A stretch of 64,000 bases of DNA from an uncultured Thiotrichales bacterium (GTDB taxonomy: Bacteria; Pseudomonadota; Gammaproteobacteria; UBA4575): assembly GCA_964636225.1 (NCBI GenBank), contig CAZWQM010000001.1, positions 2,717 to 66,716 on the forward strand, given 5' to 3'. This document shows, piece after piece, positions 1 to 64,000 of the stretch (positions within the stretch are counted from its first letter, which is position 1; each line of letters begins with the position of its first letter). The notes below the pieces were generated by a model. It had not been told where the DNA came from, searched no databases, and saw nothing but the letters and a program-made list of their open reading frames with translations. The translations under genes were made by a program, and so were the position numbers.

Positions 1-102
1 GAAGTGCCTGACAATGCGCATATTGACTATGACGGAAAAAGTTGGGTTTGCAACAAACCATTGAAAAAACTAAATAATGAATGTGTTGCTAGGAATAAGT
101 AG
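1..102 (+). CDS. 3' end of a gene that starts upstream of the window (hypothetical)
   Basis: Open frame runs from window start to TAG at 100-102 (…ECVARNK*). No recognisable family. Confidence 0.25.
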   Translation, partial: EVPDNAHIDYDGKSWVCNKPLKKLNNECVARNK

Positions 103-526
103 TCATTAGTAAATCATTCATCAAAGATATTTGATGGCAGGTTTAATCGTTGCTTTAAATCAAGTCAAATAATAAAGCCTAACTATGTTGAGTGACCGCT
201 TTTTACTCTCGAAGCGTAGATATATTTTATAAATCGGATTTTTCTATAATTGATGGATCAACAAAGTTAATTTATAAACTAGGAAAGTTATAGAATAAAA
301 AACTCTGTAGTAGCTAAATTTTTAGTGTCAGTATAAAGCTGGCACTCTTCGTTTACCTTTTTTGTAAAAATTGGGTGAACTAATTTTTCAATTTCTGGTG
401 CATTCTGGTCTGCACATATATCAAACGTGGTAATCTTTACCGATTTACCTCGAAATACTAAAATAAGTCTTCGCCTAGACCATCCCAAAAATCTTGGGTA
501 GGCCGATTCTTGGAGAAATTCCAAAT

Positions 527-1729
527 ATGTCATTTGAAACTCTCGGTCTTAGTGCCGAATTACACCGTGCAGTGTCTGAAAAAGGCTATAGCACACCAAC
601 ACCAATACAATGTCAGGCAATCCCTTTAATTTTACAAGGTCGTGACATAATGGGTGCCGCGCAGACAGGAACCGGTAAAACTGCTGGGTTCACCCTGCCG
701 CTATTGCAGCGGTTAATGTCTTCCAGTACAAACATAAAAGGACGTCGTCCTATCCGTTCGCTAGTGATAGTGCCAACTCGAGAGCTTGCTGCGCAAGTTG
801 CTGAAAGTGTGTTTACTTATGGTAAGTACTTACCGCTTCGGTCCACCGCAGTGTTTGGTGGCGTAAGCATCAATCTGCAAAAACAAACTCTGCAAAACGG
901 TGTGGATGTTCTAGTCGCCACCCCAGGCAGGCTGCTAGATCACGTCCGTCAAGGCACTGTCGACCTCTCGAATGTGGAAATTCTAGTGCTTGATGAGGCC
1001 GATCGCATGCTTGATATGGGATTTATTCATGATATCCGTAAAGTGCTCGCACTATTGCCAAAACACAAACAAACGTTACTTTTCTCAGCCACTTTCTCTA
1101 AAGAAATTAAGCAGCTGGGAAACAACTTACTCAAGTCGCCAGCCTTGATTGAAGTGGCTACTCAAAATACGGCTTCAGATCTTGTTACTCAGGTTGTCCA
1201 TCCGGTAGATAAAAGTCGAAAGCGTGAATTGCTTTCTTATCTGATTGGTATGAATAACTGGAAACAACTACTGGTATTTAACCGTACTAAACACAGCGCA
1301 AATCGACTGTCCAAGCAATTAATTGCTGACGGCATCAGCGCAACTGCGATTCATGGTAATAAGAGCCAGGGTGCACGCACCAAAGCGCTAGCAGATTTCA
1401 AATCTGGCAAAGTGCGTGTTTTAGTTGCAACGGATATTGCTGCGCGAGGCCTTGATATTAGCCAGCTACCGCACGTAGTAAATTTTGACTTGCCAAATGC
1501 CGCGGAGGACTACGTTCACCGAATTGGCCGCACAGGTCGGGCTGGTCATGAAGGAGAAGCCGTGTCACTGGTGTGCCTGGAAGAAGTGAAGCTGCTTAAA
1601 AATATCGAACGTCTTATAAATCGCGGTATACCGAAAGTGGTAATTAATAATTTTGAGCCTGACCTCTCCATCGAGCCGTCACCCATTAAGATAGGAGGCG
1701 GGAAAAAGAACACTTCTAAAAAGTTTTGA
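527..1729 (+). CDS. rhlE: ATP-dependent DEAD-box RNA helicase RhlE
   Basis: Starts MSFETLGL…TPTPIQ (Q-motif). Has AQTGTGKT (motif I), PTRELA, DEAD box ([13 protein letters not shown]), [13 protein letters not shown] (motif VI). Start chosen at the internal ATG at 527 that matches the canonical helicase N-terminus. Confidence 0.9.
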
Positions 1730-1911
1730 AGAAGCGATCTCAACAGAATTGGGATAGTTCAGATTTATCATTGTCGTATGACTTTATAAATTGACTGTAA
1801 CTCTGTAGGGATCGATAGTCTTAAGAATAATCAAAAAAGGAAGCTAAAAGTGTATAGCTATAAATGTTATTTTGAAGCAGACAGTACTCTGCAGTCATAT
1901 GAGGATATTTA

Positions 1912-2562
1912 TTGTCGTCAATAAGATTTCGATATCAAACCATCGAGTTCGGTGACCGAGATATACATTTGCGCACTCTGCGTGACAAACAGCAATATTG
2001 TGACAAAGATAGAGTTGCTGAAAAGCTTGGGATATCTTCCGCTATGTGGCCGATGTTTGGTGTCATATGGCCATCCAGTCAAGTATTAGCCAATTATCTT
2101 CAGGATTTTGATATTAAGAATAAACGAATCCTCGAAGTAGGTTGTGGGATTGGATTAGTTAGCCTACTTTTAAACTCACGACTAGCAAACATTACTGCTA
2201 CTGATTTTCATCCTGAGGTGGAAAAATATCTTAATATTAATGTTCACTTAAACAACGGTAAAAAAATACCATTTGTAAGAACTGGTTGGGACGATAATAT
2301 CAGTATCCTTGGAAAATTTGATCTTATAGTAGGGAGTGACTTGCTATATGAAAAAGATCATGCCAAATCATTGTCCAGCTTCATTAATCAACATGCAAAA
2401 GTGAAAGTTGAGGTAATACTTGCGGATCCTGGCAGAGGTGTTCACGCTTCGTTTAGCAAAAACATGAATTTACTGGGTTATTCACATAATCAATACAAAG
2501 TGAACGATACCCCATGTCTTGAGACTCCATTTAAAGGACGAATTTTACGATATCAGCGTTAA
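1912..2562 (+). CDS. class I SAM-dependent methyltransferase (protein-lysine MTase-like)
   Basis: EVGCGIGLVSLLL glycine-rich SAM motif, followed by GSDLLY (post-II motif typical of METTL21/Nnt1-like methyltransferases). Confidence 0.55.
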   Translation: MSSIRFRYQTIEFGDRDIHLRTLRDKQQYCDKDRVAEKLGISSAMWPMFGVIWPSSQVLANYLQDFDIKNKRILEVGCGIGLVSLLLNSRLANITATDFHPEVEKYLNINVHLNNGKKIPFVRTGWDDNISILGKFDLIVGSDLLYEKDHAKSLSSFINQHAKVKVEVILADPGRGVHASFSKNMNLLGYSHNQYKVNDTPCLETPFKGRILRYQR

Positions 2563-3566: not shown

Positions 3567-3847
3567 TTAAAAACAGTTAGTTATAATGTTTTATTAATCT
3601 ATAAAATTAAGTGATAATTATTCTGGGTATACCTATGGGTATACTTTGACTTAACAAGTTCACGCTCCATTTATATCTAAGTTCTAGCGTCCACTCCCCG
3701 TTTCACCCCCAGAGGGGCCCCAACCAATCTTAATCAGATTACCGAAAGTAATTTCATTTATTAAAAATTAAATGTTTCATATGGTTTCATTTGTTATTGT
3801 GTTTGCAGAGATTGATTCTCAAATCAACAAAATAAGAATTTTTAATA

Positions 3848-4228
3848 ATGGACAATTTAAATACATCTGGCGATATATATAAGTACTTTCTCGATTCTGC
3901 ACAATTTCCATATTCCACTGCAGAGCAAAATTGTATAAAAAATACCGTCAATAAGCTTTTCGCTCAGCCAACTAAGGGCAGTCATCCGGGGATGCTTTTA
4001 GGGAAAATTCAGTCGGGTAAAACAAAAACGTTCATGGCCATCATTGGTCTCGCATTTGATAATGGTTACCAAGTTTCTGTTGTATTTACGAAGGGAACTA
4101 AAGCTTTATCTAAACAGACTGAACAAAGAATTCAAAAGGATTTTAGTAAATTCATAGAAAATGATGATCTTCTAGTTTTCGACATAATGAATATGCCTTT
4201 ATCACTGTATAAGGCTTTTCATCTATAA
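3848..4228 (+). pseudogene. N-terminal fragment of a P-loop (Z1-domain-like) protein
   Basis: 126-aa ORF with a Walker-A-like motif LLGKIQSGKTKTFMAIIGLA near the N-terminus. The ORF stops after about 125 aa with no helicase/ATPase body, and its 3' end is overlapped by an antisense ORF. Truncated. Confidence 0.3.
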
Positions 4229-4541
4229 ATGCTTTTAAAGCCGCTAAGTATAAAAGGTCATATAACTTTGCATTTGCTTTTTTGAATGGATTTCTCGTGG
4301 CTGAATAGTTGTAAATTAGTACATCGATATCGTCATGCTCTATATGGTCGTCTGGATGATGTAGTTCTTTATCTCGATTCCTTAGACTATCTATGTGGTC
4401 TGATAGTATCTGTATGCATTTAGAAATATCTTTCCAATCCACATGATGAAAATGTAATTTACTCCAAATAAGTGCTAGCCGAACAGGATCGTCAAGTTGA
4501 TCGAAACTCCAATTAATAAATTGTTCATATTTTTTGGGCAT
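4152..4541 (-). CDS. hypothetical protein (possible gene fragment)
   Basis: 129-aa ORF, His/Asp-rich, no recognisable motif. Lies in the tRNA-Leu islet and overlaps the 3' end of the previous fragment. Confidence 0.25.
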   Translation of the reverse strand: MPKKYEQFINWSFDQLDDPVRLALIWSKLHFHHVDWKDISKCIQILSDHIDSLRNRDKELHHPDDHIEHDDIDVLIYNYSATRNPFKKANAKLYDLLYLAALKAFIDEKPYTVIKAYSLCRKLEDHHFL

Positions 4542-4759
4542 GTATCTCAGAATAATATAAATGTTTGATTATATTAAAATAAGTAGATCTAGTTAAATGC
4601 TACATCATTCTTTAAAGTATTTTGTAGATACCTAGATTTCATGAATTATAATATTTATAAACTCTATTGACACATAGATAATTGAATTCAGCTCACGCAA
4701 ATAAAAATGGCATTGCGGCTGTTTTATAAACAAAGATACTCTAGTAAGGAGATAAAGAA

Positions 4760-5110
4760 TTGGAAAATGAAATATCAGGGCTTTTAGACAAACTTAGAGC
4801 TTTTTCTGAAGCACGTGATTGGGCTCAGTTCCACTCACCAAAAAATTTAGCTTGTGCATTGTCAGTTGAAGCATCAGAGCTTTTAGAACATTTTCAATGG
4901 ATGAAAGAAGATGAAAGTCGATTACTTTCATCCGAAAAGTTAGCAGCGGTTGAGTCTGAAATTGCTGATGTTTTTTGTTACTTGCTTATGATTTCTGAAA
5001 AGCTTGGCATTGACTTAATTAAATCAACTAATAAAAAAATAGAGTTTAATAATTTGCGTTATCCGGTAGATAAGGCAAAAGGTCGAAGCAACAAATATAC
5101 CGAGTTATAA
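4760..5110 (+). CDS. MazG-like nucleoside-triphosphate pyrophosphohydrolase (small single-domain type)
   Basis: 116 aa. EASELLEHF (EExxE metal-binding helix) and EIADVFCYLLMISEKLGIDL (second MazG helix). Ends 10 bp before the start of the next gene. Confidence 0.7.
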   Translation: MENEISGLLDKLRAFSEARDWAQFHSPKNLACALSVEASELLEHFQWMKEDESRLLSSEKLAAVESEIADVFCYLLMISEKLGIDLIKSTNKKIEFNNLRYPVDKAKGRSNKYTEL

Positions 5111-5119
5111 AAGGTATTT

Positions 5120-6997: not shown

Positions 6998-7293
6998 AGT
7001 TAAATCGTCGTTGATGCTGCTTGAGAGTGGGGAACCCCGATACCACAGAAAAGTTTTTTGCTTGGGGCAGCATTAAGGATGCCAATAAACTCACCTAATT
7101 GTTCGTCCAAAATACAGTGTAAGTATTGCCAGATGGGACCCAATTGAAAAATGGGGGGTAGGGCATCGCTAATCTTGCATGGTAAAATCAGTCATGGGTA
7201 CCTCTTAATAAAGCTTCCTAGGCTTAATTTTTTGGGGGTATTTATGGGGGTATCAAAATTATTACTAATAAAATAGTAGTTTATAATCAATTA

Positions 7294-7893: not shown

Positions 7894-7912
7894 TATAAAT
7901 CATTAGCATTTC
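7894..7912 (+). promoter_or_regulatory. weak Fur-box-like sequence upstream of the TonB-dependent receptor
   Basis: ATAAATCATTAGCATTTCA contains the AATCATTA core of the Fur consensus GATAATGATAATCATTATC. About 9/12 match over the core region. Confidence 0.25.
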
Positions 7913-16414: not shown

Positions 16415-16946
16415 ATGAATCTGAAATCTCAGGATATATTAATATTACTCAAGCTTGTGGCTCAAGGCGATATGAATTGGGTGTATAGCCGGCTGGCGAT
16501 GGAATTAAGTATGAGTTCATCCGAAATTCATGCGGCGATGAAACGTGCCTACAGTGCCGGTTTGATGATGGATAAGGGTGACACCATGATGCCCGATGCC
16601 AAAAACCTGGGAGAATTCATTATTTATGGAGTGAAATATGCTTTTGCTGCAGAACGTGGTGACCTCTGTATGGGAATTCCAACCTCTTATGCGGTTAAAC
16701 CACTCTGTGACAAAGTGATTTACGACAACACCAGTCCGCCGCCAGTATGGCCCGACTAAAATGGCAAAGTACAGGGTATTGCTTTTCGACCGCTTTATCC
16801 TTCCGTTCCAGATGCGGTTCGCGTGGATGCTAAATTATATGAATTACTGGCATTGGTAGACGCTATTCAAGGTGGTCGAACCCGCGAACGGACAGTCGCA
16901 GTGAAAGAAATCAAGATGCGCTTTACCCAATATGCCAACCATAACA
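16415..16946 (+). pseudogene. hypothetical protein interrupted by an in-frame TAA (16757-16759)
   Basis: The ORF MNLKSQDILILLKLVAQGD…VWPD stops at TAA. The same frame stays open for a further 62 codons (NGKVQGIAFRPLYPSVPDAVRVDAKLYELLALVDAIQGGRTRERTVAVKEIKMRF…LG*) to TAG at 16944-16946. Confidence 0.35.
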
Positions 16947-17094
16947 AGCTAGGTTAGATACAACACGTCAATCCGCGACGTAAAACAGGCCGGTTTCTTC
17001 GCAGCCAATCAAATAAGTGTAGGTGCTGGAGGTGGGTTCAAACAGCTGTCTGAATATCATGAATTCACCTCTATTAATTAATTAGCTTTCAGCA

Positions 17095-21845: not shown

Positions 21846-22522
21846 GTGCGGAATGTCGCTATGGAATCTACCGTTCAAATCATCCCACTGGCGAATCTCG
21901 CCATTGCGTTTGTGCCAGTAATATCGGTAGTGGGGTTGCTTTACAAATGGTCACTGGATGCTGGCACGGCATTTTATTCCATCCTGCGTATGCTGGTTCA
22001 GCTGATTATAATCGGCTATGTGCTGGTATTTATATTTGAAACTGAAAAATTATGGGTCACAGCACTGATTGTATTGGTGATGGTGATGGCTTTCAGCTGG
22101 ATTGCCTTGCGTACGCTGGATGATTTACGTGTCTCTTTTTAAATATGTATTTATTTCATCTTTATTCGGAGGAGGCAGTGTTATATTGATGTCCATTGTT
22201 TGGGTGTTGGACCTGGATCCCATTTTTAAAACCTCAATATGCGGTGCCGCTGGCAGGGATGGTGTTTGCAAATTCTATGAATACCATGAGTCTTGCCCTG
22301 GAACGCTTAAATTCTGAATTAAATAATCACGATAATTATGTCACTGCGCGAAACGTGGCATTTAATGCATCACTGATTCCGATTATTAATTCCATGTTTG
22401 CGGTAGGTGTGGTGTCCTTGCCTGGAATGATGACCGGACAGGTACTTTTGGGTGTTTCTCCCTTGATCGCCGTGCGTTATCAAGTGCTGGTGTTGAATGC
22501 GCGCACTGGTCGTGCCAAATAG
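21846..22522 (+). pseudogene. fetB: FetB/YbbM-family (UPF0014) iron-export permease, disrupted by two frameshifts
   Basis: The homology runs through three frames: 21846-22142 (…LRMLVQLIIIGYVLVFIF…), 22102-22317 (…KYVFISSLFGGGSVILMSIVWVL…), 22196-22522 (…AVPLAGMVFANSMNTMSLALERL…VVSLPGMMTGQVLLGV…). Junctions lie at the T5 run 22136-22140 and the T5/A4 run 22224-22232. Confidence 0.6.
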
Positions 22523-28592: not shown

Positions 28593-28864
28593 GATTTGGC
28601 TAACAATTACTATAGCGAGTAAATACTGATATTTGACAGTGTGATGCAGTCTAAATAAATGAGCTTTAAAAGCGTGAGTTACTCTTCTACACTTGCGCCA
28701 TGAGTAATTTAACCGATATGTCTCAGCCGCTTTATATTCGTGCGATCAGGAAAGTATTAAGAACTGTTCCGACGAAGGCAAAAGTTCCTGACATTGCAGA
28801 ATTAGGCCAGCAATTTGCGCTGGAGTCCATGCCATTTACCCAACAGACATTAATCTGAGGTTAT

Positions 28865-29425
28865 ATGAACGGCATGTTTTTCTCACTTAAACATGCTACA
28901 AGAGTTGAGTGGCTGGCACCACCGGTACGAGCGATCATTCCTATAGATGATTATCGTGTGCCCAAAAGTGTTAAGCGCTTGATCAAGCTGAACAAATTTG
29001 AAATCCGTTTTGACAGCAGTTTTGAACAAGTTATTCGACATTGCTCAAACCGTGAAATTGATCCGCAAATCAACGAACAGGTGATTGATGTTTTCTGCAA
29101 GCTGCATGAAATGGGCATTGCGCATAGCGCAGAAGCCTGGTTGGATGGCGAACTTGTGGGTGGATTATATGGCTTTCGTTTAGGCAGTTATTTTACCGGT
29201 GAAAGTCAGTTTCATACGGTTCCTGATGCCGGAAAAGTGACTTTTGCAGCCATGCTCGAGCGGCTTAAAGACTTGGGCTATATGCTGCATGACATTCAAT
29301 ATAGAACGCCTCACCTTGACCGCTTTGGCGCCATCAATATATCGGATGCTGAGTTCAGGGAAACTTTAACAAAAGCGATGATCACACCCGCCGAGTGGCC
29401 GGCTTATTCTGAAAAACACGGTTAA
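28865..29425 (+). CDS. aat: leucyl/phenylalanyl-tRNA--protein transferase (Aat). An upstream in-frame ORF (28700-28855) is separated from it by a single TGA
   Basis: WLAPPVRAII (like the WWSPDPRAVL motif), GIAHSAEAWLDGELVGGLYG and GESQFH match Aat. The 28865 ORF lacks about 50 N-terminal residues relative to E. coli Aat. The missing length is present in the same frame upstream, ending at TGA 28856-28858. Confidence 0.7.
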   Translation: MNGMFFSLKHATRVEWLAPPVRAIIPIDDYRVPKSVKRLIKLNKFEIRFDSSFEQVIRHCSNREIDPQINEQVIDVFCKLHEMGIAHSAEAWLDGELVGGLYGFRLGSYFTGESQFHTVPDAGKVTFAAMLERLKDLGYMLHDIQYRTPHLDRFGAINISDAEFRETLTKAMITPAEWPAYSEKHG

Positions 29426-34248: not shown

Positions 34249-35177
34249 ATGACGACCCTTGCACAACAACTGCCGGAAATACTGCAGCGCAACAGCTCGC
34301 TATTGCCGCGCATTTTAAATTATGTGCTGGTGGTACTTATCGCCGTCAGTTCGGACAAGCTGGCTTGGGGACTATTTGCTACACAGAACGCGACTGAAAC
34401 CGTATCTGATATTAAAGCTGCCCCACCACGGCTGGTCAAGCCCGCTGCTCCAAACCCGGATTATGATGCTCAACTGGCCCGTTTGCATTTGATGGGTAAG
34501 GCATCTATTGCAAATAACTCTGTTGCGGCTGACCAAAATGCGCCCGACACTTCGTTGAATTGACGCTCAGTGGTATATTGGCGCTGGGAGCCGGTGAAGG
34601 ATTTGCTATTATACAGAATGAATAAAAAAAATAATTATTATCATATAGATGATAAAGTAACTTCAGGAGTTACTTTACATTCAGTTTATCCGGATTATGT
34701 GCTTTTGGCACGGGCTGGACGCACCGAAAAGCTATCATTACCGAAAGCATCAGATAAGGGTTTTTCAACCCAGGCAGGCTCTGTCAGCCGGACTTCACTT
34801 ACCGTGCCGAGAAACAGTGGGCGTGCCACTACACCTAACAGTCAATCAATCAGTGAACCCCCCCCAAGTTGGCGACCCTAAAACAGCAATTGACTAAAAA
34901 TCCTTCTTCATTGGCTAGATATATCTCTATCAGCAGTGCTAATGATGAGCAAGGGATATTTATGGGGTATGAGGTGAAACCGAATGGCGACTCATCCGCT
35001 CTTTTTGATGAACTGCGGTTGGTGGAAGGAGATGTAGTGACCTCCATTAATGAGATTTCACTGGATAATCCAAACAAGGCGACTCAGGCATTGCAAAAAC
35101 TGGTGAGTGCTGGCCAGCTACAAATGACCGTATTACGTGCTGGATCTGAAATTAATCTGGTTCATAACCTAGAATAG
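34249..35177 (+). pseudogene. gspC: type II secretion system protein GspC, disrupted by three or more frameshifts
   Basis: The N-terminal TM/linker is in frame 1 (34249-34563). The HR-domain start LSGILALGAGEGFAIIQNE is in frame 0 (34566-34622). The remainder of HR (GVTLHSVYPDYVLLARAGRTEKLSLP) is in frame 1 (34630-34881). The PDZ domain (…EGDVVTSINEISLDN…LRAGSEINL) is in frame 0 (34869-35177). Junctions lie at the A8 run 34623-34630, the C8 run 34859-34866, and near 34540-34565. Confidence 0.65.
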
Positions 35178-35259: not shown

Positions 35260-35358
35260 ATGAAATCGACAAAAGTAGCACATCATAAAATACTCAGGTC
35301 TCGTGTGCTGGCACTGGTGATGCTGGCAACCTGTCTGCTCTCTCATTCATTATTCTAG
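35260..35358 (+). pseudogene. gspD: 5' stub of secretin GspD (signal-peptide region only, 32 codons)
   Basis: MKSTKVAHHKILRSRVLALVMLATCLLSHSLF* sits where gspD would be expected downstream of gspC. The rest of the operon is absent. Confidence 0.3.
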
Positions 35359-40325: not shown

Positions 40326-40681
40326 GTAAGTCCTGTGAGATAGAATTACTTTTTATAATTGCGGAATGATAACCCAGACGTGGCTATGAGATAAATTTGT
40401 TTTGTCGTTTAACGACTAATGTATTAGATTAGATTTTCTTCGTCTTCTTCGGGCACTCGTCCCAGGCTAATGTTTCCCAGCCCCCATAATGCGACTTCTT
40501 CCCTTCTAACATAAACATTGCGTCCTTATTGCGTCATTTGCGCAATTTAATAATCCCATGTGTTAACTATATTTATAATATTTTGTTAGAGTGCAAACTG
40601 TTTTGAAGTGTTTAACAGAATAAAATCCATGAAAAACATAACTTTAACTCGTATCTTATAGTAAAGAGTTGATTTTGAGTA

Positions 40682-50712: not shown

Positions 50713-52560
50713 TCACTCCAGTGCCACATTCGCAATCGAGGTCCGATTAATCGTGTAGGTGTAACCGGCGTGAAACTCTTTGCTAAACAGGGTCTTTTCA
50801 CCCGTCGACCAGATGATAGCAAGCTTATTCACGACTGTTTCATCGCCTAATCCAAAATGCGCATAGTGAGCGTCAAGTGAAAGGAACCCACCGCCTGTTT
50901 TAATCTCACGAATCTGTTTGATTTCATTTTCGCCAGTACCGGTAGCAATCAAAACCTTACAACCTATGCAATTGGCGTTGCCAATTTCATCATTAATCTT
51001 AATTGTGATGGCGTTGTTTTCTTTCAGATTATTTTTAAAAACTTTTAGCCCTCCATGTGTCGTGTTCCCAATAATGTCCAGGTCACCATCATTATCAATA
51101 TAAGTAAAGGCCGAGCTGTGATCAAAATCATCCAGGCCAAAAGAGACATGTTTTAATAAGAACTTCTCACCGTTTCTATTGTGAAAGAACATATTGGGTG
51201 AATGCGTTGTAGGTCCTACAAATGCCGCATAAACCGAACCGTTAGCAACATATATATCCTGCCAGCCATCATTATTAAAATCGCCTGAAGCCAGACCCGT
51301 GCCCAGGAAAAACGGTTCAACAAAATTACTTTCATCAATTTTATTATAGGAATCGATGCCTAAATCGACTGCTTTATACTTGGTGAAAGGCAGGGTGCCT
51401 TCAATGTTGGCGGGAGAATAAAGCGAACGTGTAACGATAAAGTTCTTTTTGCTATAGTAGTTTTCATTAACAGGTGACACAGTATCCTGCAGACCATATA
51501 AGGCAAATTTGTTGATATCTCTTCGCTGAATTGTTCCGACGTGCTTTCGATCTCCCCGCAACACTTCATTCGTGTACTGCTGTTCCCATTTTTGATCTTT
51601 ATAATCCGTAATTGTCTGTTCAACATATCCTGCTGCGATACCAAGAACTGCTACAATTGCAAACAGCAAAATGGCAAGTTTAGTACTGAATGTACGCCAA
51701 ATAATAAAACCGGAATAAACGCTGAACGTACCTAATGTAAATAACAGTGCCATGACAATGACAATAGGCACATCTGCGGCAAATAAAGATTGTGCCAGCA
51801 TGACATTAAATGCGATGGGCATAGGCAAAAATGTCCCAAATACACTGATTGTCGCAATGGCCCAAAAGGATGGATGTGTTCCAATTAGTGTGTTCGGATC
51901 CCACACATGAGAGACCAATGCACCAAGAAAACCCGCCACAAACATTAGTGGTACGGTGCGATAAACAATATAAGCAAAACTTTCTGAATAATCTTTGAAT
52001 ATTCCAAACAAGGCTTGTCCCCAGGATTCAGAATTAATCACGGGCGTATCTGGAATGGCACAGGCAATAGGTTCCTGTTCATTTTGTTTGTGTGTAATAA
52101 AAGGGACGATGACGAGAATAAGAAAGATTGTAAAATCCAGCTTTATTAATGCCACATAAAATGGAAACAACGTGAACAACATGGTTAGCACAATTATGTT
52201 CAAGGTCGGCGAACTAAACATGACTGCGAGAGATGTTTGCAGACTTCTCCCGCCTTCATACATGGCTTTGGCTATTGGAGCCACGCAGTTGACGCAAACA
52301 CCTATTGATCCACGCCCAGTTGACGGTGGTATAGCCAACTTTTTCCACAAAAGATGCTGCTTCATCAATATGAAACAACGCTTCGTGTGTGAGCGTATCT
52401 TCCAAATGAATTATACCTGTCATGTCCGCTTTACCCTGTAGGGCAGGATAACGCGACATCGTCCAGAAACTGACAACAATTGCAATGATGACGAAAAAAT
52501 TAAAATGACCCGGCGATTTCCCAATATTGATGTCAAAGCTGCCATAATTTATACGTCTGT
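50713..52560 (-). pseudogene. DUF318/YraQ-like permease fused to a CRTAC1-like (FG-GAP + ASPIC/UnbV) domain; N-terminus out of frame
   Basis: The main ORF 50713-52368 has the GVCVNCVAPIAKAM permease motif and multiple TMs, then GDFNNDGWQDIYVANG / YIDNDGDLDIIGNTTHGG (FG-GAP) and a C-terminal UnbV-like segment (…GCKVLIATGTGENEIKQIREIKTGGGFLSLDAHYAHFGLGDE…). An overlapping upstream ORF in another frame (52256-52545, …FVIIAIVVSFW…HLEDTLTHEALFHIDEAASFVEKVG…) looks like the displaced permease N-terminus. The apparent frameshift lies near 52370-52400. Confidence 0.45.
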
Positions 52561-55162: not shown

Positions 55163-58100
55163 TTAGTTTAATGCAACTCGAGCATTTCTAAATATGCGCA
55201 TCCATGGGCTGTCCTCTTCCCAGTCATAAGGGTGCCAGGAGTGCTGCACAGTTCTAAATAGACGTTCAGGATGTGGCATCATGATGGTGAATCTTCCATC
55301 TGTATTGCTTAAAGCTGTGATACCCAGAGGTGATCCATTGGGATTTAATGGATAAATTTCAGTAGCCTCACAAGTAGAATTCACGTAGTGCATAGTATTG
55401 AGATTGGCAGCTAAAATCTGCTCACATTGTTCGCGACTTGCATCGATACGGCCTTCCCCATGCGCTACTGCCACCGGCAGAACAGAACCGTGCATGTCGC
55501 TAAACATCATGGACGGCGAATGGGTAATCTCGACATTCACCAGACGTGCCTCAAATTGTTCGGATCTATTGCGTACAAAATTTGGCCATAGCTCTGCGCC
55601 AGGAATGATTTCTCTTAGCTGAGACATCATCTGACAGCCATTGCATACGCCTAGCGCCAGTACATCTTTCCGGATAAAAAATGAATTAAATATATCACGT
55701 AAATTATTGTTATATAAAATACTACTGGCCCACCCATTGCCGGCTCCTAGAACATCTCCGTAAGAGAATCCACCACAGGCCACCAGCATATGGAAATCGG
55801 ATAATTTTTGTCTGCTAAAGATCAAATCCGTCATATGCACATCAATGGCCTCAAACCCGGCACGGTCAAACGCAGCAGCCATCTCAATTTGCCCATTGAT
55901 TCCCTGTTCGCGCAAAATAGCTGCTTTTGGTCGCAAATTTTTTGCAATATACGGGGCACAGATATCCTCATTTATATCGAAACTGGTTTTAACCACTAGG
56001 CCCGTATGTCTGTCGTCGGAAATGAGTAGTGCCTCTTGTTCAGCCACTTCGGGATTATCTCGAAGTTTCTGAATCTGAAGACTTGGTTGACTCCATATTA
56101 ATTCAAGCTCTGCACGAGATTTATTTAATAACTCACTATTATTATATGAAATAATAATATTCTCTTCAGCTGTTGGCTCACCAAGTATATGCAGACAATC
56201 TGTCAGTCCGCATTCATTTGCCAGCAAAGTTGCTTGCGCTAGATCTTCTGTGCTGATCTGTAGGACCGCACCTAATTCTTCATTAAAAAGATTTTCTAAC
56301 GCACTGTTTCCTAATTTATTAACCTGTACTTTGATACCGCATCGTCCGGCAAAAGCCATTTCACACAGGGTTGCCAATAACCCACCGTCACTGCGATCAT
56401 GGTAAGAAATAACATTAATAGTATCTCTTAACTTAATAATATAATTGATGAACTTTGAGAGTAATTCGGGATTGTCTACATCAGGGACATTGTTGTCAGA
56501 AATTTTGTAAACCTGACTCAGACATGAAGCGCCCAGTCTATTCTTCTTTTCTCCCAGATCAATCAAAACCAAATAACTGGTACCCAGATCTGTACGAATA
56601 TGTGGAGTCCAGGTTTTTCTGATGTCAGCCACTGGAGAGAATGCCGATACAATAAGTGAAACCGGCGAAACAACGTTTTTATTAACGCCTCTTTCTAGCC
56701 ATGTTGTCTGCATGGAGAGTGAGTCTTTACCTACAGGGATAGCAATATTTAAGTTTCTGCATATATTAGAAAGCGCATTAACTGTATCATATAACACACT
56801 ATCTTCATTATCATAATTGGCAGCTGCCATCCAGTTCGCAGACAGGCGAATATCATTTATTTGTTGCACATCTGCCGCCAGTAAATTAGTGATGGCTTCA
56901 CCAAGCGCCATGCGTGCGGAATTGGGTCCTGAACTCAATGCAATTGGTGTACGCTCTCCCATGGACATCGCTTCTCCAGTATAGCTTTTGAAGCTACTGG
57001 CAGTCACCGCAACATCGGCTACCGGGACCTGCCAGGGACCAACCATTTGGTCTCTCGCTACTAACCCAGTAATCGTTCTGTCTCCGATTGTGACCAGAAA
57101 TTTCTTGGAGGCGACTGTAGGATTACGCAACACGTACTCAACGGCATGCTCGATTTTTATATGTTGATAATCTGCTGATTTAGTTAATAAAGTTTTTCGG
57201 AAAGTACTGCGTTCCATTTTCGGTGGCTTTCCTAACAACACTTCCATAGGAATATCGATCGGATTTTGCCCAAATTTTGCATCCGTGACGATCAAATCCT
57301 GTTTGTCTGTTGCTTCACCAACCACTGCTACGGGGCAGCGTTCTCGTTCGCAAATTTGTTTAAATGCATCTAACTGGCTCTCCTTAATGGCAAGTACATA
57401 ACGTTCCTGGGCTTCATTACACCAAATTTCCATAGGTGACATGCCCGGTTCAGCATTAGGTACTTTGCGCAGTTCAATAATGCCTCCACGACTGACATCA
57501 TTCAGAATTTCCGGTAAAGCATTTGACAATCCTCCTGCCCCTACATCATGGATTGAGAGTATGGGATTTTTTTCCTGCAAGCCCCAGCAACGATTAATCA
57601 CTTCCTGGCAGCGTCGTTCCATTTCCGGGTTTTCACGTTGAACTGAAGCAAAGTCTAGTTGTTCGTTACTGCTACCGGAGGCCATGGAAGATGCAGCGCC
57701 TCCCCCCAGACCAATCAACATAGCGGGACCACCCAGTACGATTATCGGCGTCCCGGCAGGAATATCCTGTTTTTCTACATCGCTTTCGCGAATATTGCCC
57801 ATTCCTCCAGCAATCATAATGGGCTTATGGTAGCCTCGAACTACGCCAGCAACTTCCTGTTCAAAAGTTCTGAAATAGCCAAGCAAATTCGGGCGACCAA
57901 ACTCATTATTGAACGCGGCGGCTCCTAGGGGACCTTCAATCATAATATCCAGCGCAGAAACAATGCGCTCTGGCTTTCCATAATTAATTTCCCAAGGTTC
58001 ATGCATGCCTGGAATTTGCAGATTAGAAACGCTAAACCCACATAGACCGGCTTTAGGATAGCCACCTCGTCCGGTGGCACCTTCATCCCGAATTTCCCCA

Positions 58101-59035
58101 CCTGAACCGGTCGCGGCACCCGGAAAAGGTGAAATGGCAGTGGGGTGATTATGGGTTTCCACTTTCATGAGAATATGAATGTCTTCAGTAGAGTAGGAAT
58201 AACGGGTATCTGACTGAGCATAAAAACGTTCACCGGCATGACCCGCAATCACCGCAGAATTGTCTTTATAGGCGGAGAGCACATTATGTGGCGCATTGGC
58301 ATGAGTCGTGCGAATCATGCCAAACAGGGTTTCGTCCTGCTTTTGTCCGTCAATTGTCCAGCTGGCGTTAAATATTTTATGTCGACAATGCTCGGAATTT
58401 GCCTGAGCAAACATCATTAACTCAACATCAGATGGGCAGCGGTTTAGCTTAGTGTAATTCTCGACCAGATAATCGATTTCATCATTCGATAAAGCCAGAC
58501 CAAGCTGTGTATTGTAGCTGGCAATGTCCTGTGCCATATCTTCAATGGAAAACAGGCGCCGCACCGGGGCCGGTTCTTTATGTTTAAATAACAAAGAAAT
58601 CTGGGCGATTTTGGTCAACACGCTTTGTGTCATGCGATCATGAAGCTGCAGCAACACTTGCTGACGTCGGCTTTCATCCACTTTTCGCCAACCTGTTAGG
58701 GTGTAAAACACCCCTCTTTCCACACGGCCCGTTTGACCAAGTCCACAATGTTCAACAATATCTGTCGCCTTGCTCGACCAGGGAGAAATCGTTCCGATAC
58801 GAGGAGTTATAATTAATTGCTCATCTAATTTATAATTAGTAGAAATCGCCTGCTCTACTTTTAATAACTGGCGCAATAACCCAATTTGTTCAGAAGGCAG
58901 TACGCCAGATTTTTCTGTAAAGTAAATCCAGAAAGACTCAATAGATTCAATTTCGGGAGCAATTTTTTGAACAGAACTCAGCTGTTGCTGGCGTCTAAAA
59001 GGTGTGGCTGCAGGGCCACCGCGAAGGATCAGCAT
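55163..59035 (-). CDS. purL: phosphoribosylformylglycinamidine synthase (single-chain large PurL)
   Basis: 1290 aa. N-terminal PurS-like domain, duplicated AIRS-like domains, C-terminal glutamine amidotransferase (…GVCNGCQMM…). Intact. Confidence 0.95.
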   Translation of the reverse strand: MLILRGGPAATPFRRQQQLSSVQKIAPEIESIESFWIYFTEKSGVLPSEQIGLLRQLLKVEQAISTNYKLDEQLIITPRIGTISPWSSKATDIVEHCGLGQTGRVERGVFYTLTGWRKVDESRRQQVLLQLHDRMTQSVLTKIAQISLLFKHKEPAPVRRLFSIEDMAQDIASYNTQLGLALSNDEIDYLVENYTKLNRCPSDVELMMFAQANSEHCRHKIFNASWTIDGQKQDETLFGMIRTTHANAPHNVLSAYKDNSAVIAGHAGERFYAQSDTRYSYSTEDIHILMKVETHNHPTAISPFPGAATGSGGEIRDEGATGRGGYPKAGLCGFSVSNLQIPGMHEPWEINYGKPERIVSALDIMIEGPLGAAAFNNEFGRPNLLGYFRTFEQEVAGVVRGYHKPIMIAGGMGNIRESDVEKQDIPAGTPIIVLGGPAMLIGLGGGAASSMASGSSNEQLDFASVQRENPEMERRCQEVINRCWGLQEKNPILSIHDVGAGGLSNALPEILNDVSRGGIIELRKVPNAEPGMSPMEIWCNEAQERYVLAIKESQLDAFKQICERERCPVAVVGEATDKQDLIVTDAKFGQNPIDIPMEVLLGKPPKMERSTFRKTLLTKSADYQHIKIEHAVEYVLRNPTVASKKFLVTIGDRTITGLVARDQMVGPWQVPVADVAVTASSFKSYTGEAMSMGERTPIALSSGPNSARMALGEAITNLLAADVQQINDIRLSANWMAAANYDNEDSVLYDTVNALSNICRNLNIAIPVGKDSLSMQTTWLERGVNKNVVSPVSLIVSAFSPVADIRKTWTPHIRTDLGTSYLVLIDLGEKKNRLGASCLSQVYKISDNNVPDVDNPELLSKFINYIIKLRDTINVISYHDRSDGGLLATLCEMAFAGRCGIKVQVNKLGNSALENLFNEELGAVLQISTEDLAQATLLANECGLTDCLHILGEPTAEENIIISYNNSELLNKSRAELELIWSQPSLQIQKLRDNPEVAEQEALLISDDRHTGLVVKTSFDINEDICAPYIAKNLRPKAAILREQGINGQIEMAAAFDRAGFEAIDVHMTDLIFSRQKLSDFHMLVACGGFSYGDVLGAGNGWASSILYNNNLRDIFNSFFIRKDVLALGVCNGCQMMSQLREIIPGAELWPNFVRNRSEQFEARLVNVEITHSPSMMFSDMHGSVLPVAVAHGEGRIDASREQCEQILAANLNTMHYVNSTCEATEIYPLNPNGSPLGITALSNTDGRFTIMMPHPERLFRTVQHSWHPYDWEEDSPWMRIFRNARVALN

Positions 59036-59242
59036 AGTGTCTGAAGCTCGTATAAATGTTAGAAATCATATCAGGGGTAGTGACTATATTAGCCGAATTT
59101 TAACATTGAAACACGTAGTAAAATTAACTTTAAATTGCGCTAGTTTATTCACCAAATTGCACGAAAAGACAGAAAAATTTTTTTTGCTCATGTAACTCAC
59201 AGGTGGATTAATATAATCATTTGATTAATTCAATAACACCTC

Positions 59243-59854
59243 GTGAATCTGTCTACATCAAGTAATTCTGCATTGTTCACTAATCAGCTACCCTATGACG
59301 GTGAAGTGTATCTGGATAATCAATATTTCAGTGAAAACGAAGCCTCGCATTACTTTGATTGCTTACAGAAGGAAATTCAATGGGAACACAGGGAAATTCA
59401 GCTCTTTGGCCGATCTATTCTTCAGCCCCGTTTAATAGCCTGGCATGGTGAGCCCGGTGTGACTTATAAATACTCTGGTTTGATGATGACGACTAAGGCC
59501 TGGACGCCCAGCCTGAATGAAATCAAAAGCAGAATTGAGAACCACTTGGGTTATACGTTTAACGCCGTTTTTTTAAATAAGTACAGAAACGGCCATGACT
59601 ACATGGGCTGGCATCGTGATAATGAAAGAGTTCAAGGCTTACAGCCACTTATCATTTCCGTCAGTTTTGGCGCAAAACGCGCATTTAAATTTCGCCATTA
59701 CTATCAAAAGGGTATTGATATAAAATTTGAATTGAACAGTGGTAGTCTGTTAATCATGCAAGGAGAAACGCAGGAATATTGGTCTCATTCGCTGCCCAGA
59801 GCATTAAAAATCAGCGAAGCCAGAATCAACCTGACTTTCCGCAACATTCTGTAA
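59243..59854 (+). CDS. alkB: alpha-ketoglutarate/Fe(II)-dependent dioxygenase AlkB
   Basis: HxD…H facial triad context (GWHRDNE…) and RINLTFRNI C-terminal motif. 203 aa. Confidence 0.75.
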   Translation: MNLSTSSNSALFTNQLPYDGEVYLDNQYFSENEASHYFDCLQKEIQWEHREIQLFGRSILQPRLIAWHGEPGVTYKYSGLMMTTKAWTPSLNEIKSRIENHLGYTFNAVFLNKYRNGHDYMGWHRDNERVQGLQPLIISVSFGAKRAFKFRHYYQKGIDIKFELNSGSLLIMQGETQEYWSHSLPRALKISEARINLTFRNIL

Positions 59855-59950
59855 AAATTACGGGTTTTGTCAGCTATACAGGCAAAACAAGGCAAAATAT
59901 CTCTATATCGTGACAACTTTTACGCTAGACTAGAGTCTAACTAGAGTACT

Positions 59951-60308
59951 GGGGGCGACCTGGCTTCGACGTGGGTGACCGAACTCTAGGTGCATGCCGA
60001 GGATGTAGACACCTCGTTAAAGATTTCTGCAAACATATAGTCGCAAACGACGACAACTTTGCTCTAGCTGCCTAAAAACCAGTTTTAGAGTCGTCCGCCC
60101 TAGTGAGCTTGCGCGTTAGGATCCGGGCGTCACCTTAGCAAGATCGTGGCGAAACCTGTCTGTAGTGGAGCCATTAAACTTAGCACAGACTCGTGATTAA
60201 ACGCCCTGCCTGTCGGACCTTGATCACTAAAATAAAGACAGATCTAAGCATGTAGTACCGAAAGTGAAGAACTTGCGGACGCGGGTTCAATTCCCGCCGC
60301 CTCCACCA
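59951..60308 (+). ncRNA. ssrA: tmRNA (SsrA); tag reading frame 60043-60075 encodes ANDDNFALAA
   Basis: 5' GGGGGCGACCTGGCTTCGACGTGGG pairs with 3' …GCGGGTTCAATTCCCGCCGCCTCCACCA, forming a tRNA-Ala-like acceptor with a G3:U. The internal ORF GCA AAC GAC GAC AAC TTT GCT CTA GCT GCC TAA is the tag. Confidence 0.9.
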
Positions 60309-60347
60309 AATATCTGATGCTTGGTCTACAACGTACTGATTAGCTTA

Positions 60348-60839
<492 letters not shown>

Positions 60840-61317
60840 TTAAGAAAAAATTAATAATGAGGCTTAATTAGATCGCAATTTTGTACATTTATATAATTTA
60901 TAATTTAAATCATAACAATAGATTTTATAAATAAATTAAGTTTCAATATTTGATACATAATTTTAATAACGATATTTATTACATAATGGCCTGCATTGAT
61001 GTTCATCAATAATTTTTAGAGCACTAAATGCACTTATATTGCTAGATAAAAATTCGAGTAAAGAATTGAAATGACTGCTTTTGAGCCGTAAGCAGACTGA
61101 GTTTTATATGAATACAGTTCTAATTGTATTCCAGACTTCTGAGATAGCGATTTTTTCTAGCGCACCATCTAGCGAACGGACTTGTATTGAAGAAAATTAA
61201 ATGTAGCATGTCCATACGAGCAAGGCTTACAAATTAGCGCATCCAGCAAAAGAGCTGTGTCTTTAATTCTTTTGCAGCTAGATAGTTGTTAAGTTAAAAA
61301 AAGAAGGGCAGCGAAAG

Positions 61318-61572
61318 TTACATTTTCGCATAAATTTCGCAGTGTAGTTTTTTATTGTGGACAATCAGTCGAATACCGGCATCACGAATGCTGTTTTTAT
61401 TTTTGACATATCTTGCAGCATTTGCATAGGCACTGGACGCGTCGCTAATATTAGAAGTTATTTCATTGATAAGTTTCCAGCCATGACTTTTCAGTCTGTC
61501 TGGTTCCATGTTACTGAGACTTTTAATACTGTCCATCATGTGCTTTTCATTCCCGCAAGTGTGTGTTAACAC
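61318..61572 (-). CDS. hypothetical small protein
   Basis: 84-aa ORF in the AT-rich tmRNA-adjacent scar. No motif recognised. Confidence 0.2.
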   Translation of the reverse strand: MLTHTCGNEKHMMDSIKSLSNMEPDRLKSHGWKLINEITSNISDASSAYANAARYVKNKNSIRDAGIRLIVHNKKLHCEIYAKM

Positions 61573-61729
61573 AATGTTAGCACATCAGACTTTTGAATTC
61601 ATCTAATCTTTCATATTCAAAATTTATCAAAATTTTGTTTTCGATTTATTTTGTAAATCAAATTGTATATAACTACATAGATTGTTATAGTAAGTCGACT
61701 GAGAAATATAAAATTGACCAGTACTTCTC

Positions 61730-61996
61730 ATGCAACTATCTAGCTACATACTTGTGATCACAGCGCTATCTTTCTGCAGCCACTCAAGTGCTGAGAGTGT
61801 TTCGAACCTAGCAATTGATAGAAGTGTTTCAACTGAAGGATTTGTTACTATTAGTTGGGAGACTGCAGAAACTCTGCATTCCGTAAATCTAGAGATATCA
61901 ACCGACCCCTTATTTAAAAATACAACTGGACAAGCGCTAAAGAATGTAAGGCCGCGGAAAGAGCTTACTATAAAAAGCATGATCATGGCCTGTTAA
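61730..61996 (+). CDS. hypothetical secreted protein fragment
   Basis: Signal peptide (MQLSSYILVITALSFCSHSSA), then about 65 residues, then stop. No recognisable family. Confidence 0.25.
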   Translation: MQLSSYILVITALSFCSHSSAESVSNLAIDRSVSTEGFVTISWETAETLHSVNLEISTDPLFKNTTGQALKNVRPRKELTIKSMIMAC

Positions 61997-62148
61997 ATGT
62001 CATTGTTTACCCAGACGCTCAGCACAGTTTTGATTTGCCCATAACTACTCAGAAGTTTGCAGGTCATACGATCGGCGCGAATAGACCTGCATTGCAAGAT
62101 AGCCGAAAAAAAATTTTAGCGTTTTTTGAAAGGTATAGGTCAAAATAA
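61984..62148 (+). pseudogene. dienelactone-hydrolase-family C-terminal remnant
   Basis: Frame HGLLNVIVYPDAQHSFDLPITTQKFAGHTIGANRPALQDSRKKILAFFERYRSK* resembles the C-terminal His-containing segment of DLH-family hydrolases (…YP.A.H.F…A….FF). It is in a different frame from the upstream secreted ORF. Confidence 0.4.
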
Positions 62149-62155
62149 TTTTTAG

Positions 62156-63205
62156 CTAATCATCTGTTATTAACGTATCTGCAGATAGTATTTCTTCCAT
62201 GGGAGAAATATTTGCGGCGACTTCTTCTACATTTTCGAAGTACGCAATATGAAATAAAGGATCACCTTCATAGACTAAAGGCGTATGTGATTTTCCTATA
62301 ACTATGCCATTATTTTCGACTTTGACACGTTTAGGCTTATTCATACCCCCTACGTCTTCAATCACTCCAAGTGTTTGGCCAACAGTGACATGCTTGCCTA
62401 AAGTCGTTTTAGAACGGAAAATTCCACTCATGGTTGCCCTTGTCCAGCTGCTGGATTTGGCAATGGAAGGTTCATGCCGTCTGCCTTTAATCTTAGTATC
62501 GGCAGGTAGCATTTTCAGATATTTCAAAGTATTTAAAATGCCATTTAAACCCACGCGAATACAAACTTCGTTGTAGCGCATCGCTTCACCGGACTCATAG
62601 ACTATGATACTAACGCCTTTATCCTTCCCAGCACCGCGCAATGAGCCTTCTGGCAGTTTTGAATTTATTATTACAGGGACACCGAAAGCCTTGGCAAGTT
62701 TTCGCACGATCGGATCTTCAATATCGGCACGTATTTGAGGCACATTGTCACGATTGTTGGCACCTGTATGTAAATCAATGCCGTAAGTGCATTGGCTAAC
62801 AATTTCTTCCATGAACAGATAAGCAAACCGACCTGACAGAGAACCACTCGGAGATCCTGGAAAACAGCGATTCAGATCACGTCGATCTGGCATGTAGCGT
62901 GAGCGTTGAATCATTCCATAAATATTCACCGCAGGGACAGCGATAACTGTTCCGACTAAATTTTTGATGGATATACGTTTGACTAATCTTCTGACGATTT
63001 CAATGCCATTTAATTCATCACCATGCAAAGCCGCACTGATGAAAACATTTGGCCCACCTGGCTCGCCTGAAAATACATGTATGGGCATAACAAGCGGAGT
63101 ATCTGTATAGAGCGGTGGAAGAGGTATGTCGATTTGATAGTATCTTCGGGGAAGAATTCTTATTCCCGAAATTGTTAAAGCATGATCTAACAGTTCTCTA
63201 GCCAA
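62156..63205 (-). CDS. succinylglutamate desuccinylase/aspartoacylase (AstE/AspA) family zinc hydrolase
   Basis: HGDELNGIEI zinc-binding motif and the 349-aa family layout. Commonly paired with rimK. Confidence 0.7.
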   Translation of the reverse strand: MARELLDHALTISGIRILPRRYYQIDIPLPPLYTDTPLVMPIHVFSGEPGGPNVFISAALHGDELNGIEIVRRLVKRISIKNLVGTVIAVPAVNIYGMIQRSRYMPDRRDLNRCFPGSPSGSLSGRFAYLFMEEIVSQCTYGIDLHTGANNRDNVPQIRADIEDPIVRKLAKAFGVPVIINSKLPEGSLRGAGKDKGVSIIVYESGEAMRYNEVCIRVGLNGILNTLKYLKMLPADTKIKGRRHEPSIAKSSSWTRATMSGIFRSKTTLGKHVTVGQTLGVIEDVGGMNKPKRVKVENNGIVIGKSHTPLVYEGDPLFHIAYFENVEEVAANISPMEEILSADTLITDD

Positions 63206-63229
63206 TACAATAACCCATAATGAATTTAA

Positions 63230-64000
63230 TTAACCTTTGCCACGTGTTTGAGTTCGGTGAGGTTTAGCATTTTTTTCTATAAACGAAATAATCATGCCGG
63301 CCACATCCTTATTAGTTACGGTCTCAATTCCTTCAAGTCCCGGAGAAGAATTTACTTCCATCACAACAGGACCGTTATTAGAACGTAGTATATCCACACC
63401 AGCTACATTCAGGCCCATTTTTCTGGCGCCTTTGAGTGCAGTCGCGCGTTCAGCGGGTGACAGCTTCACTAGTTGCGCAGAACCACCCCTATGTAAATTA
63501 GAACGAAACTCACCTTCCATAGCGGTGCGCATCATGGCAGCCACTACTTTTTCACCTATCACGAAACAACGAATATCACTGCCACGAGCTTCCTTGACAA
63601 AACTTTGCACTAAAAAGTTTGCATTCAATTGCCTAAAAGCATCAATGATCGTTTCAGCGGCTTTTTGAGTTTCTGCTAGTACTATGCCTTTACCCTGAGT
63701 ACCCTCCAGGATTTTTACCACTAAAGGTGGTCCACCTACAACATTTATTAGATCGTTGGTATTTTTGGTTGAATTGGCAAAACCTGTTGGAGGCAGACCT
63801 ACCCCAGCCCGCGCAAGTATTTGCAGCGAGCGTAGTTTATCCCGGGAGCGAGTAATGGCGACCGACTCATTCAATGGGTAGGATCCCATCATTTCAAATT
63901 GCCTTAATACAGCACAGCCATAAAAAGTAATTGAAGCACCAATTCGGGGAATTACTGCATCAAAGTAGTCCAGTTCTTTGCCTTGTAAATGCACACAAGG
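63230..64000 (-). CDS. rimK: ribosomal protein S6--L-glutamate ligase RimK (ATP-grasp); the N-terminus lies beyond the window end
   Basis: [15 protein letters not shown]…[16 protein letters not shown]…[19 protein letters not shown]…RSNLHRGG…[14 protein letters not shown] is close to E. coli RimK. The gene continues past 64000. Confidence 0.85.

Follow-up and report, generated by a model that had tools for sequence, protein, structure and literature searches.

Lineage-specific lesions suggest ongoing loss of accessory genes in an uncultured marine UBA4575 gammaproteobacterium

We analyzed a stretch of 64,000 nucleotides (the window) from the genome of an uncultured Thiotrichales bacterium (GTDB UBA4575; assembly GCA_964636225.1, contig CAZWQM010000001.1, positions 2,717 to 66,716 of the forward strand), in which broken secretion, transport, and stress genes stand among uninterrupted core genes; all window counts given here refer to this one 64-kb stretch. 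Ten of its ~61 protein-coding loci (16%, about one in six) are disrupted. The lesions are genuine, heritable mutations that are distributed by lineage. They very probably record ongoing reductive evolution, in which selection has been relaxed on accessory genes of an uncultured marine UBA4575/UBA1858-like gammaproteobacterium that is still losing them. All eight loci that a reading of the nucleotide sequence alone (the original prediction) had called broken proved, when checked against intact homologues, to be present at or near the positions given for them. Its count of lesions was too low, however, and we add a cyclase-FHA remnant, a fragment of a ResIII helicase gene, and further deletions in a permease gene.

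The lesions were reproduced in at least nine runs or assemblies, which represent two sublineages. Clade A, the lineage of the window, comprises Logan contigs of SRR15213105, SRR15213107, and SRR15213108, which are 99.97 to 100% identical to the window over every lesion that they cover. Clade B, a sister sublineage, comprises contigs of SRR15927517, SRR15927518, SRR24791495, ERZ27257198, ERZ27257200, and ERZ27275788, which are 98.9 to 99.6% identical to the window and together span its positions 19,740 to 64,000, minus ~2 kb around the transfer-messenger RNA (tmRNA) gene (58,284 to 60,429). For two lesions, the premature TAA in open reading frame (ORF) 16415 and the ResIII fragment, coverage comes solely from runs of the window lineage. 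The more distant relatives are species-representative genomes with PepA identities of 60 to 77% (best pepA match, 77%). Local synteny around fur-pepA-dus-gspC is kept in L014 to L020, and synteny around purL-permease-ettA-glyA-rib is kept in L104, a Tara scaffold from a 71%-identical relative. Disruption relative to intact homologues was seen for gspC, gspD, aat, ORF16415, the permease fusion gene, katG, the dienelactone hydrolase (DLH)-family gene, fetB, and the cyclase-FHA gene.

Remnants of a type II secretion system (T2SS) and a gene with an ExeA/GspA-like product are located as follows.

34249..35177, + strand: gspC pseudogene (cross-frame reconstruction, Pfam T2SSC match, sister contigs)
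35260..35358, + strand: gspD stub, aligning to the N terminus of the GspD of L020 and L016
24076..25410, + strand: gene for an AAA_22-FHA ATPase with an ExeA/GspA-like N terminus (Pfam), intact in the window

Reconstruction from three ORF fragments in three frames yields a GspC of 309 amino acids (aa), which aligns end to end, at 63 to 68% identity, with the single-frame 315-aa GspC of L016 and L020 and which matches the whole Pfam T2SSC model (positions 2 to 141 of 141). Three lesions were found: one T is lost at ~34559 (AATTTGACG becomes AATTGACG), giving a TGA stop; a TAA and a run of eight A's (A8; A9 in clade B) occupy 34620 to 34631; and a C8 run lies at 34858 to 34865. Because the TAA sits immediately upstream of the A run, neither A8 nor A9 restores the frame. 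The T loss, the C8 run, and the gspD stub are common to every sister contig, and clade B has an extra 92-bp deletion (window 34986 to 35077) between two copies of the 9-bp repeat GGCGACTCA. All that is left of gspD is the signal peptide (32 codons), after which comes a convergent tonB-exbD-exbD-exbB cluster. At the same locus in relatives, gspC is followed by gspD (673 to 677 aa), gspE, gspF, gspG, and gspH, with Pfam Secretin/N0, T2SSE, T2SSF, T2SSG, and GspH domains. The T2SSC match and the domains of this operon identify the locus as that of a T2SS, and a tblastn search of the window with the GspD to GspG proteins of the relatives gave no further match beyond the stub. The ExeA-like gene, whose orthologues are intact (435 to 441 aa) in L016 and L020, carries a 10-bp frameshifting deletion (window 24136 to 24145) in five clade B contigs only.

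Three further loci are broken by small frameshifts or nonsense codons.

21846..22522, + strand: fetB pseudogene, UPF0014 iron-export permease (Pfam, tblastn with Escherichia coli FetB)
28700..29425, + strand: aat pseudogene, leucyl/phenylalanyl-tRNA-protein transferase (Leu_Phe_trans Pfam match)
16415..16957, + strand: ORF16415, a truncated conserved hypothetical gene (homologue comparison)

The fetB fragments lie in different frames and match UPF0014 profile positions 2 to 75 and 171 to 219 (E. coli FetB residues 39 to 83 and 116 to 221). About 35 C-terminal residues are gone, and no gene for the partner FetA was found between typA and fetB. The first shift, a 2-bp TC deletion at ~22131, occurs in the window lineage only, the clade B contigs having kept the TC, whereas the second, a shift of +/-1 in a T5A4 tract (22224 to 22232), is common to both clades; the gene calls are accordingly 93 plus 87 aa in the window lineage and 152 plus 87 aa in clade B. 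In aat, which is intact in L020 (238 aa), a TGA stands at 28856 to 28858 where clade B has AGA, and read-through of it gives a match over the whole of Leu_Phe_trans. Contigs of SRR15213107 and SRR15213105 carry this TGA too. Clade B carries two other nonsense mutations, CAG to TAG at 28811 and CAA to TAA at 29027 (both C to T), and therefore aat was inactivated independently in the two sublineages. Divergence of aat between the clades is 1.9%, versus 0.5 to 0.8% elsewhere, and the changes are mostly nonsynonymous. ORF16415 ends at a premature TAA (16757 to 16759), giving a product of 114 aa instead of the ~191 aa expected from its homologues (191 aa, 75 to 88% identical, covering 100% of the read-through translation). 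Only the 114-aa stump is annotated in the deposited genome, and the sequence is identical in the Logan contig L005 (SRR15213107).

Larger losses mark a gene that in relatives joins a permease to a beta-propeller.

50713..52545, - strand: ArsP_1 permease-FG-GAP-ASPIC (CRTAC1-like) pseudogene (homologue alignment, sister contigs)

Homologues of this fusion with ArsP_1, FG-GAP, and ASPIC domains are 880 to 946 aa long, or ~1046 aa if the upstream coding segment of L104 is included, whereas 516 to 551 aa are left in the window. The original prediction of one frameshift at 52370 to 52400 has to be replaced, with slightly different placement, by three lesions: a 1-bp deletion at 52497, seen in clade A only; a loss of ~46 codons that joins WAWINR out of frame to IGVCVNC (junction 52301 to 52305); and an in-frame loss of ~400 codons between two NDGW repeats (junction near 51260). 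Both large deletions are also present in clade B (four sister contigs).

Where they are intact (P0002, P0003, P0005, P0017, and P0025; L104 positions 4767 to 7908), the relatives encode a ~900- to 1050-aa protein with an ArsP_1/YraQ-type permease and an FG-GAP/ASPIC (CRTAC1-like) beta-propeller, an unusual fusion that is widespread in metagenomes. We considered whether the gene might be natively split, as an upstream ORF overlaps the main gene in L104, and rejected this: a run of N's lies exactly there, and ~46 codons are gone at the window junction. In the same scaffold, which contains the N run, glyA and thiL are each called as two ORFs (10478 to 11745 and 16486 to 17456), which may be an assembly problem.

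Two more remnants lie next to the tmRNA gene.

59951..60308, + strand: tmRNA gene, intact (ARAGORN; Rfam RF00023, 218 bits)
60348..60824, - strand: katG remnant (PDB phmmer)
61888..62148, + strand: DLH-family remnant (exhaustive HMMER search, tblastn)

Residues 4 to 130 of the 158-aa katG ORF (window 60435 to 60815) match KatG residues 5 to 131 of 720 (E = 3e-72), and its last 28 codons are unrelated read-through that ends 40 bp from the 3' end of the tmRNA gene. The clade B contig L112 matches the window to 60430 and then runs on as canonical KatG (NLDKARRLLWPIKKKYGN) to the contig end; the truncation of katG is therefore specific to the window lineage and recent. Of the DLH-family gene, the C-terminal ~85 codons are left, with an internal stop, matching residues ~181 to 270 of proteins of 260 to 285 aa. 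An exhaustive HMMER search matched its 74-aa translation (61924 to 62148) to the C-terminal ~70 residues of these proteins, 8 of 8 of which, when scanned, contained the Pfam DLH domain; tblastn carried the homology to 61888 and revealed the internal stop. When only the fragment was used as query, neither Pfam nor PDB yielded a match. The remnant is common to clade B, where an A8 run of the window (62106 to 62113) is A7.

Between the two remnants, the spacer at 60825 to 61887 differs from clade B at 26 of ~1063 positions (~2.4%), versus a synonymous divergence of 1.3% in core genes; recombination, hypervariability, or the great age of what is now junk DNA may lie behind this. The ancestral katG/DLH neighborhood was not revealed by an 86% relative, in which the AstE-like gene has other synteny (rpiA, LysR), and a search for a direct repeat of the 3' end of the tmRNA or tRNA-Leu gene, a mark of integrated islands, found none.

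The two remnants added here are the following.

40427..40525, - strand: adenylate/guanylate cyclase-FHA stub, the last ~33 codons plus an added TAA
3848..4228, + strand: N-terminal fragment of a ResIII-type helicase, 126 aa with a Walker A motif, matching Pfam ResIII positions 8 to 79 of 164 only

The cyclase-FHA gene forms a nested series of deletions, from the full 295 aa in L095, through a 5'-deleted 165-aa ORF in L094 and L001, to the window and L002, which lack a further 411 bp. The rest of the ResIII gene is gone, its place downstream being taken by AT-rich junk (frame translation) with a local GC content of 0.35 to 0.38.

How these losses compare with the rest of the window bears on whether selection has been relaxed. 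The longest of the uninterrupted core genes listed below served as a control.

55163..59035, - strand: purL, intact core control (1290-aa ORF with full Pfam architecture)

Besides purL, the ORFs of typA (605 aa), ettA (557 aa), gltX (472 aa), glyA (418 aa), the rib genes, and a DEAD-box helicase gene (the rhlE of the original prediction) are intact, as had been claimed. Over 38.4 kb compared with clade B, 12 indel events separate the two lineages. Every one of them maps to a pseudogene or to intergenic DNA, and the 29.7 kb of coding sequence intact in both lineages contains no indel. By our own arithmetic, the probability of such avoidance under uniform placement is ~0.23^11, or ~1e-7. The ratio of nonsynonymous to synonymous polymorphism (pN/pS) is 0.12 for core genes versus 0.50 for accessory genes. 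Clade B also carries the older lesions (the gspC frameshifts, the loss of gspD and the T2SS operon, one fetB frameshift, the two permease gene deletions, and the DLH stub). Within ~1.3% synonymous divergence, new disruptions have arisen in aat (twice), katG, the ExeA-like gene, and the cyclase-FHA gene, and lesions have been added to gspC, fetB, the permease gene, and the DLH remnant. The tolerated indels, the extra lesions, and the 1.9% divergence of aat with its independent stops are the marks of neutral evolution after inactivation. Intact coding sequence and RNA genes cover 75.3% of the window, pseudogene remnants 9.3%, and other noncoding DNA 15.3%.

Because the same genes carry different and additional lesions in clade B, which is ~99.2 to 99.5% identical to the window, and core pN/pS is 0.12, relaxed selection is the right framework for these data, and the earlier claim that damage is concentrated in secretion, transport, and stress genes under relaxed selection is borne out. 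Together with relaxed selection, we infer a deletion bias, and the combination is well supported. In the mechanism that we propose, purifying selection would have been lifted from type II secretion, the FetAB iron exporter, the N-end-rule transferase Aat, and the catalase-peroxidase, and likewise from the dienelactone hydrolase, the permease-beta-propeller fusion, the cyclase-FHA signaling protein, and the conserved hypothetical protein. Ordinary mutations would then pile up unopposed. Among them are nonsense substitutions, deletions that join short direct repeats, and slippage, both in homopolymers and in short repeats. Core genes remain under strong purifying selection. Decay would move through one pathway after another: once gspD and the operon downstream of it were lost, gspC probably eroded next, and the ExeA-like ATPase gene came after it in one of the sublineages; fetB likewise probably eroded after fetA was lost. 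Such decay is very probably still running, as the two sublineages differ by less than 1% and each has gained new lesions of its own.

The alternative that survives best accepts the decay as real and sees in it the ordinary accessory-genome turnover of a free-living planktonic or particle-associated UBA4575 methylotroph, with the window oversampling islets at tRNA and tmRNA genes and with no lifestyle shift or genome-wide reduction. Members of UBA4575 are found in plankton and sediments as well as in various hosts, a Tara scaffold carries a syntenic relative with 71% identity, no insertion sequence (IS) elements were seen in the window, a core-gene pN/pS of 0.12 is normal, and the katG, DLH, and ResIII remnants adjoin tmRNA or tRNA genes. 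However, most of the broken loci (gspC and gspD, fetB, aat, ORF16415, the permease gene, and the cyclase-FHA gene) lie outside such islets, in the syntenic backbone between conserved housekeeping genes. Judged by general knowledge of pseudogene fractions, a 16% share of disrupted loci with several inactivations within ~1.3% synonymous divergence is also more than is usual in free-living bacteria of large population size. We regard turnover without reduction as unlikely.

Several observations weigh against ongoing reduction itself. The evidence comes from 64 kb and is not genome-wide, and part of the damage lies in probable variable regions adjoining tRNA or tmRNA genes. The pN/pS of 0.50 for accessory genes was calculated from 50 substitutions. 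Individual pseudogenes contain few substitutions; divergence clearly exceeds the background only in aat (1.9%), in the stub of gspD, and in the katG-DLH spacer (~2.4%), and it does not do so in fetB and the permease gene (0.55 to 0.6%). By a crude ORF-based measure, coding density is 83%, within the 80 to 93% found for loci of relatives; for the syntenic block alone, it is 80% in the window and 80 to 89% in the relatives. The clade A Logan contigs may share libraries with the deposited genome; for the two lesions seen in clade A only, the TAA of ORF16415 and the ResIII fragment, independence thus rests on the use of a different assembler and not on different data. Finally, the Pfam annotations of the window genes include no transposase domain or IS element, so that neither IS proliferation nor any other classic hallmark of early host restriction was seen in the window.

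Reductive evolution that is still under way nevertheless accounts best for the lesions, and what may have relaxed selection is a further question. Host restriction, one of the possibilities named in the original prediction, is a hypothesis for the cause. The decay might even mark the opening of a change in lifestyle, with corals or other invertebrates among the conceivable partners. Gene loss would then be fast enough for sublineages ~1% apart in synonymous divergence to have killed aat independently and to have lost katG, the ExeA-like ATPase gene, and the cyclase-FHA gene separately, with a "domino" decay following T2SS loss and the sublineages forming a natural population-level time series, although we consider this extended scenario doubtful. 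The nearest relatives of the window belong to GTDB o__UBA4575; f__UBA4575; g__UBA1858, and two of them are metagenome-assembled genomes (MAGs) of 2.5 Mb from coral skeleton. Besides coral skeleton, the sources of the relatives are sponges, plankton, sediment, and the culture of a red alga; their genomes are 2.5 to 2.7 Mb in size, with a coding density of ~89 to 90% (gene-caller figure for the two UBA1858 coral-skeleton MAGs).

Comparison with what is generally known of other systems shows both likenesses and differences. As in Sodalis glossinidius, Mycobacterium leprae, Shigella, Yersinia pestis, and Burkholderia mallei, examples of early reductive evolution in bacteria that became niche restricted recently, there are many recognizable pseudogenes, each broken in more than one way. 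Losses affect genes for secretion, transport, and stress and spare informational and biosynthetic ones, sister lineages show parallel inactivation of the same gene, deletions fall between short direct repeats, and coding density may be lowered. Unlike those bacteria, the window has neither a visible IS expansion in 64 kb nor an identified host, its relatives are already small and dense, and its core pN/pS of 0.12 is not obviously elevated. With the streamlined OM43 and SAR11 groups it shares a methylotroph-related marine lineage, small genomes in the clade, and accessory gene loss; however, those groups have very few pseudogenes and very high coding density, whereas 9% of the window consists of remnants and a further 15% is noncoding.

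That the frameshifts could be homopolymer indel errors of sequencing or assembly, with the genes intact in the organism, had been raised in the original prediction, and two observations speak for it: several shifts fall within or next to tracts of the types A8, C8, T5A4, and (TC)n, and the source contig is long (222 kb), which could indicate long-read data. However, the same lesions recur in short-read-style Logan unitig contigs and in MEGAHIT k141 contigs of at least eight other runs or assemblies, and many of them are not homopolymer changes at all: three nonsense codons, the loss of a T from a T3 run, deletions of 92 bp, 411 bp, ~138 bp, and ~1.2 kb, and the truncations. The gspD and katG truncations and the nonsense codons had already been judged not to be homopolymer artifacts, and the reproduction of large deletions and stops across contigs agrees with this. 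Further, 30 homopolymers (at least 7 A/T or at least 6 G/C) in intact coding sequence show no frameshift, among them A8 in ydjM and ygjP, T8 in gltX, and T7 and C6 in purL. The lesions are thus not confined to homopolymers, not irreproducible, and not equally frequent in core genes. Because of the recurrence in other assemblies, the nonhomopolymer lesions, and the unshifted core homopolymers, we consider homopolymer error excluded for practical purposes.

The idea that the split genes function through programmed ribosomal frameshifting, stop codon read-through, or phase-variable homopolymer switching could draw on the A8/A9 (gspC) and A8/A7 (DLH) polymorphisms, which resemble the tract variation of contingency loci, and on the fact that the aat stop is TGA, but it is extremely improbable and can be set aside because the orthologues of relatives are single frame, the genes carry several independent lesions with deletions and stops in every frame, and the essential partners (gspD to gspN, and fetA) are absent. 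Unlike at phase-variable loci, where tract length likewise varies between sublineages, no tract length here restores an ORF (neither A8 nor A9 does so in gspC), further lesions are fixed, and partner genes are deleted; long ORFs elsewhere in the window use all three stop codons in the standard way. No single conserved shift site was found, and orthologues are not split alike. The original prediction had named consensus errors and equally split orthologues as findings that would overturn it, and neither appeared: the indels were reproduced, and the orthologues of distant relatives are single frame. Annotators should therefore treat the broken loci as true pseudogenes and should not "fix" them as assembly errors.

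Gene decay of this kind is a well-established phenomenon and is not new in itself; here it is seen in the uncultured and little-known marine clade UBA4575. Comparison of the paired sublineages shows with unusual clarity in what order and at what tempo genes are lost, in a series that comprises shared old lesions, parallel aat knockouts, nested cyclase-FHA deletions, and the decay of orphaned partners. If genome-wide data and metadata tied the decay to a host-associated niche, early genome reduction would gain a useful model from the sea.

The original prediction had also pointed to a marine methylotroph. This fits the UBA4575/UBA1858 taxonomy, as members of the order UBA4575 have been reported as dissimilatory methylotrophs in plankton (PMC8371827), but the only methylotrophy-linked genes in the window itself are fae (PF08714) and one for an HxlR-family regulator. 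The segment with a CBS-domain gene, fae, and tRNA-Glu (window 32030 to 34043) is missing between the GT2 gene and gspC in L016, L020, and L018, which suggests that the lone fae was inserted at this site in the lineage of the window specifically.

Some minor features of the window deserve mention. It contains ~51 intact protein genes, four tRNA genes, and the tmRNA gene (ARAGORN, Rfam) at a GC content of 41 to 42%. Downstream of tRNA-Cys and tRNA-Leu, an islet of low GC content (35 to 38%; ~3600 to 7000) holds the ResIII fragment, a MazG-like gene, and a Schlafen-group-3 helicase gene (PF09848), and it looks like a small defense or mobile islet. Searches for remnants in two gaps gave no Pfam match in 6990 to 7950 (three forward frames) or in 32540 to 33262 (six frames). 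Within the 950-bp gap upstream of a TonB-dependent receptor gene, an open stretch in the third frame of the + strand (7260 to 7400), ending in GWYDNSSQNPNNPDPNAEVNFGLRTRDEMMIGYFDWVDTP and a stop and without a Pfam match, looks like the C terminus of a lost protein. In the rib operon, a 190-aa ORF with only a faint Proteasome match lies between ribD and ribE (44781 to 45353, - strand); the same interval in L104 is a ~430-bp gap with no called gene.

Just upstream of an HdeA-like ORF and fur, a conserved noncoding element of ~125 nucleotides with a rho-independent terminator at its end lies at 22713 to 22840 on the + strand. Its DNA is 83 to 87% identical in relatives whose proteins are only 67 to 77% identical, and its C/U-rich core CCCUUUCUCCUCU, which is anti-Shine-Dalgarno-like, is invariant. 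No Rfam family matched the element. It is a candidate trans-acting small RNA, and its neighborhood hints at a possible link to iron.

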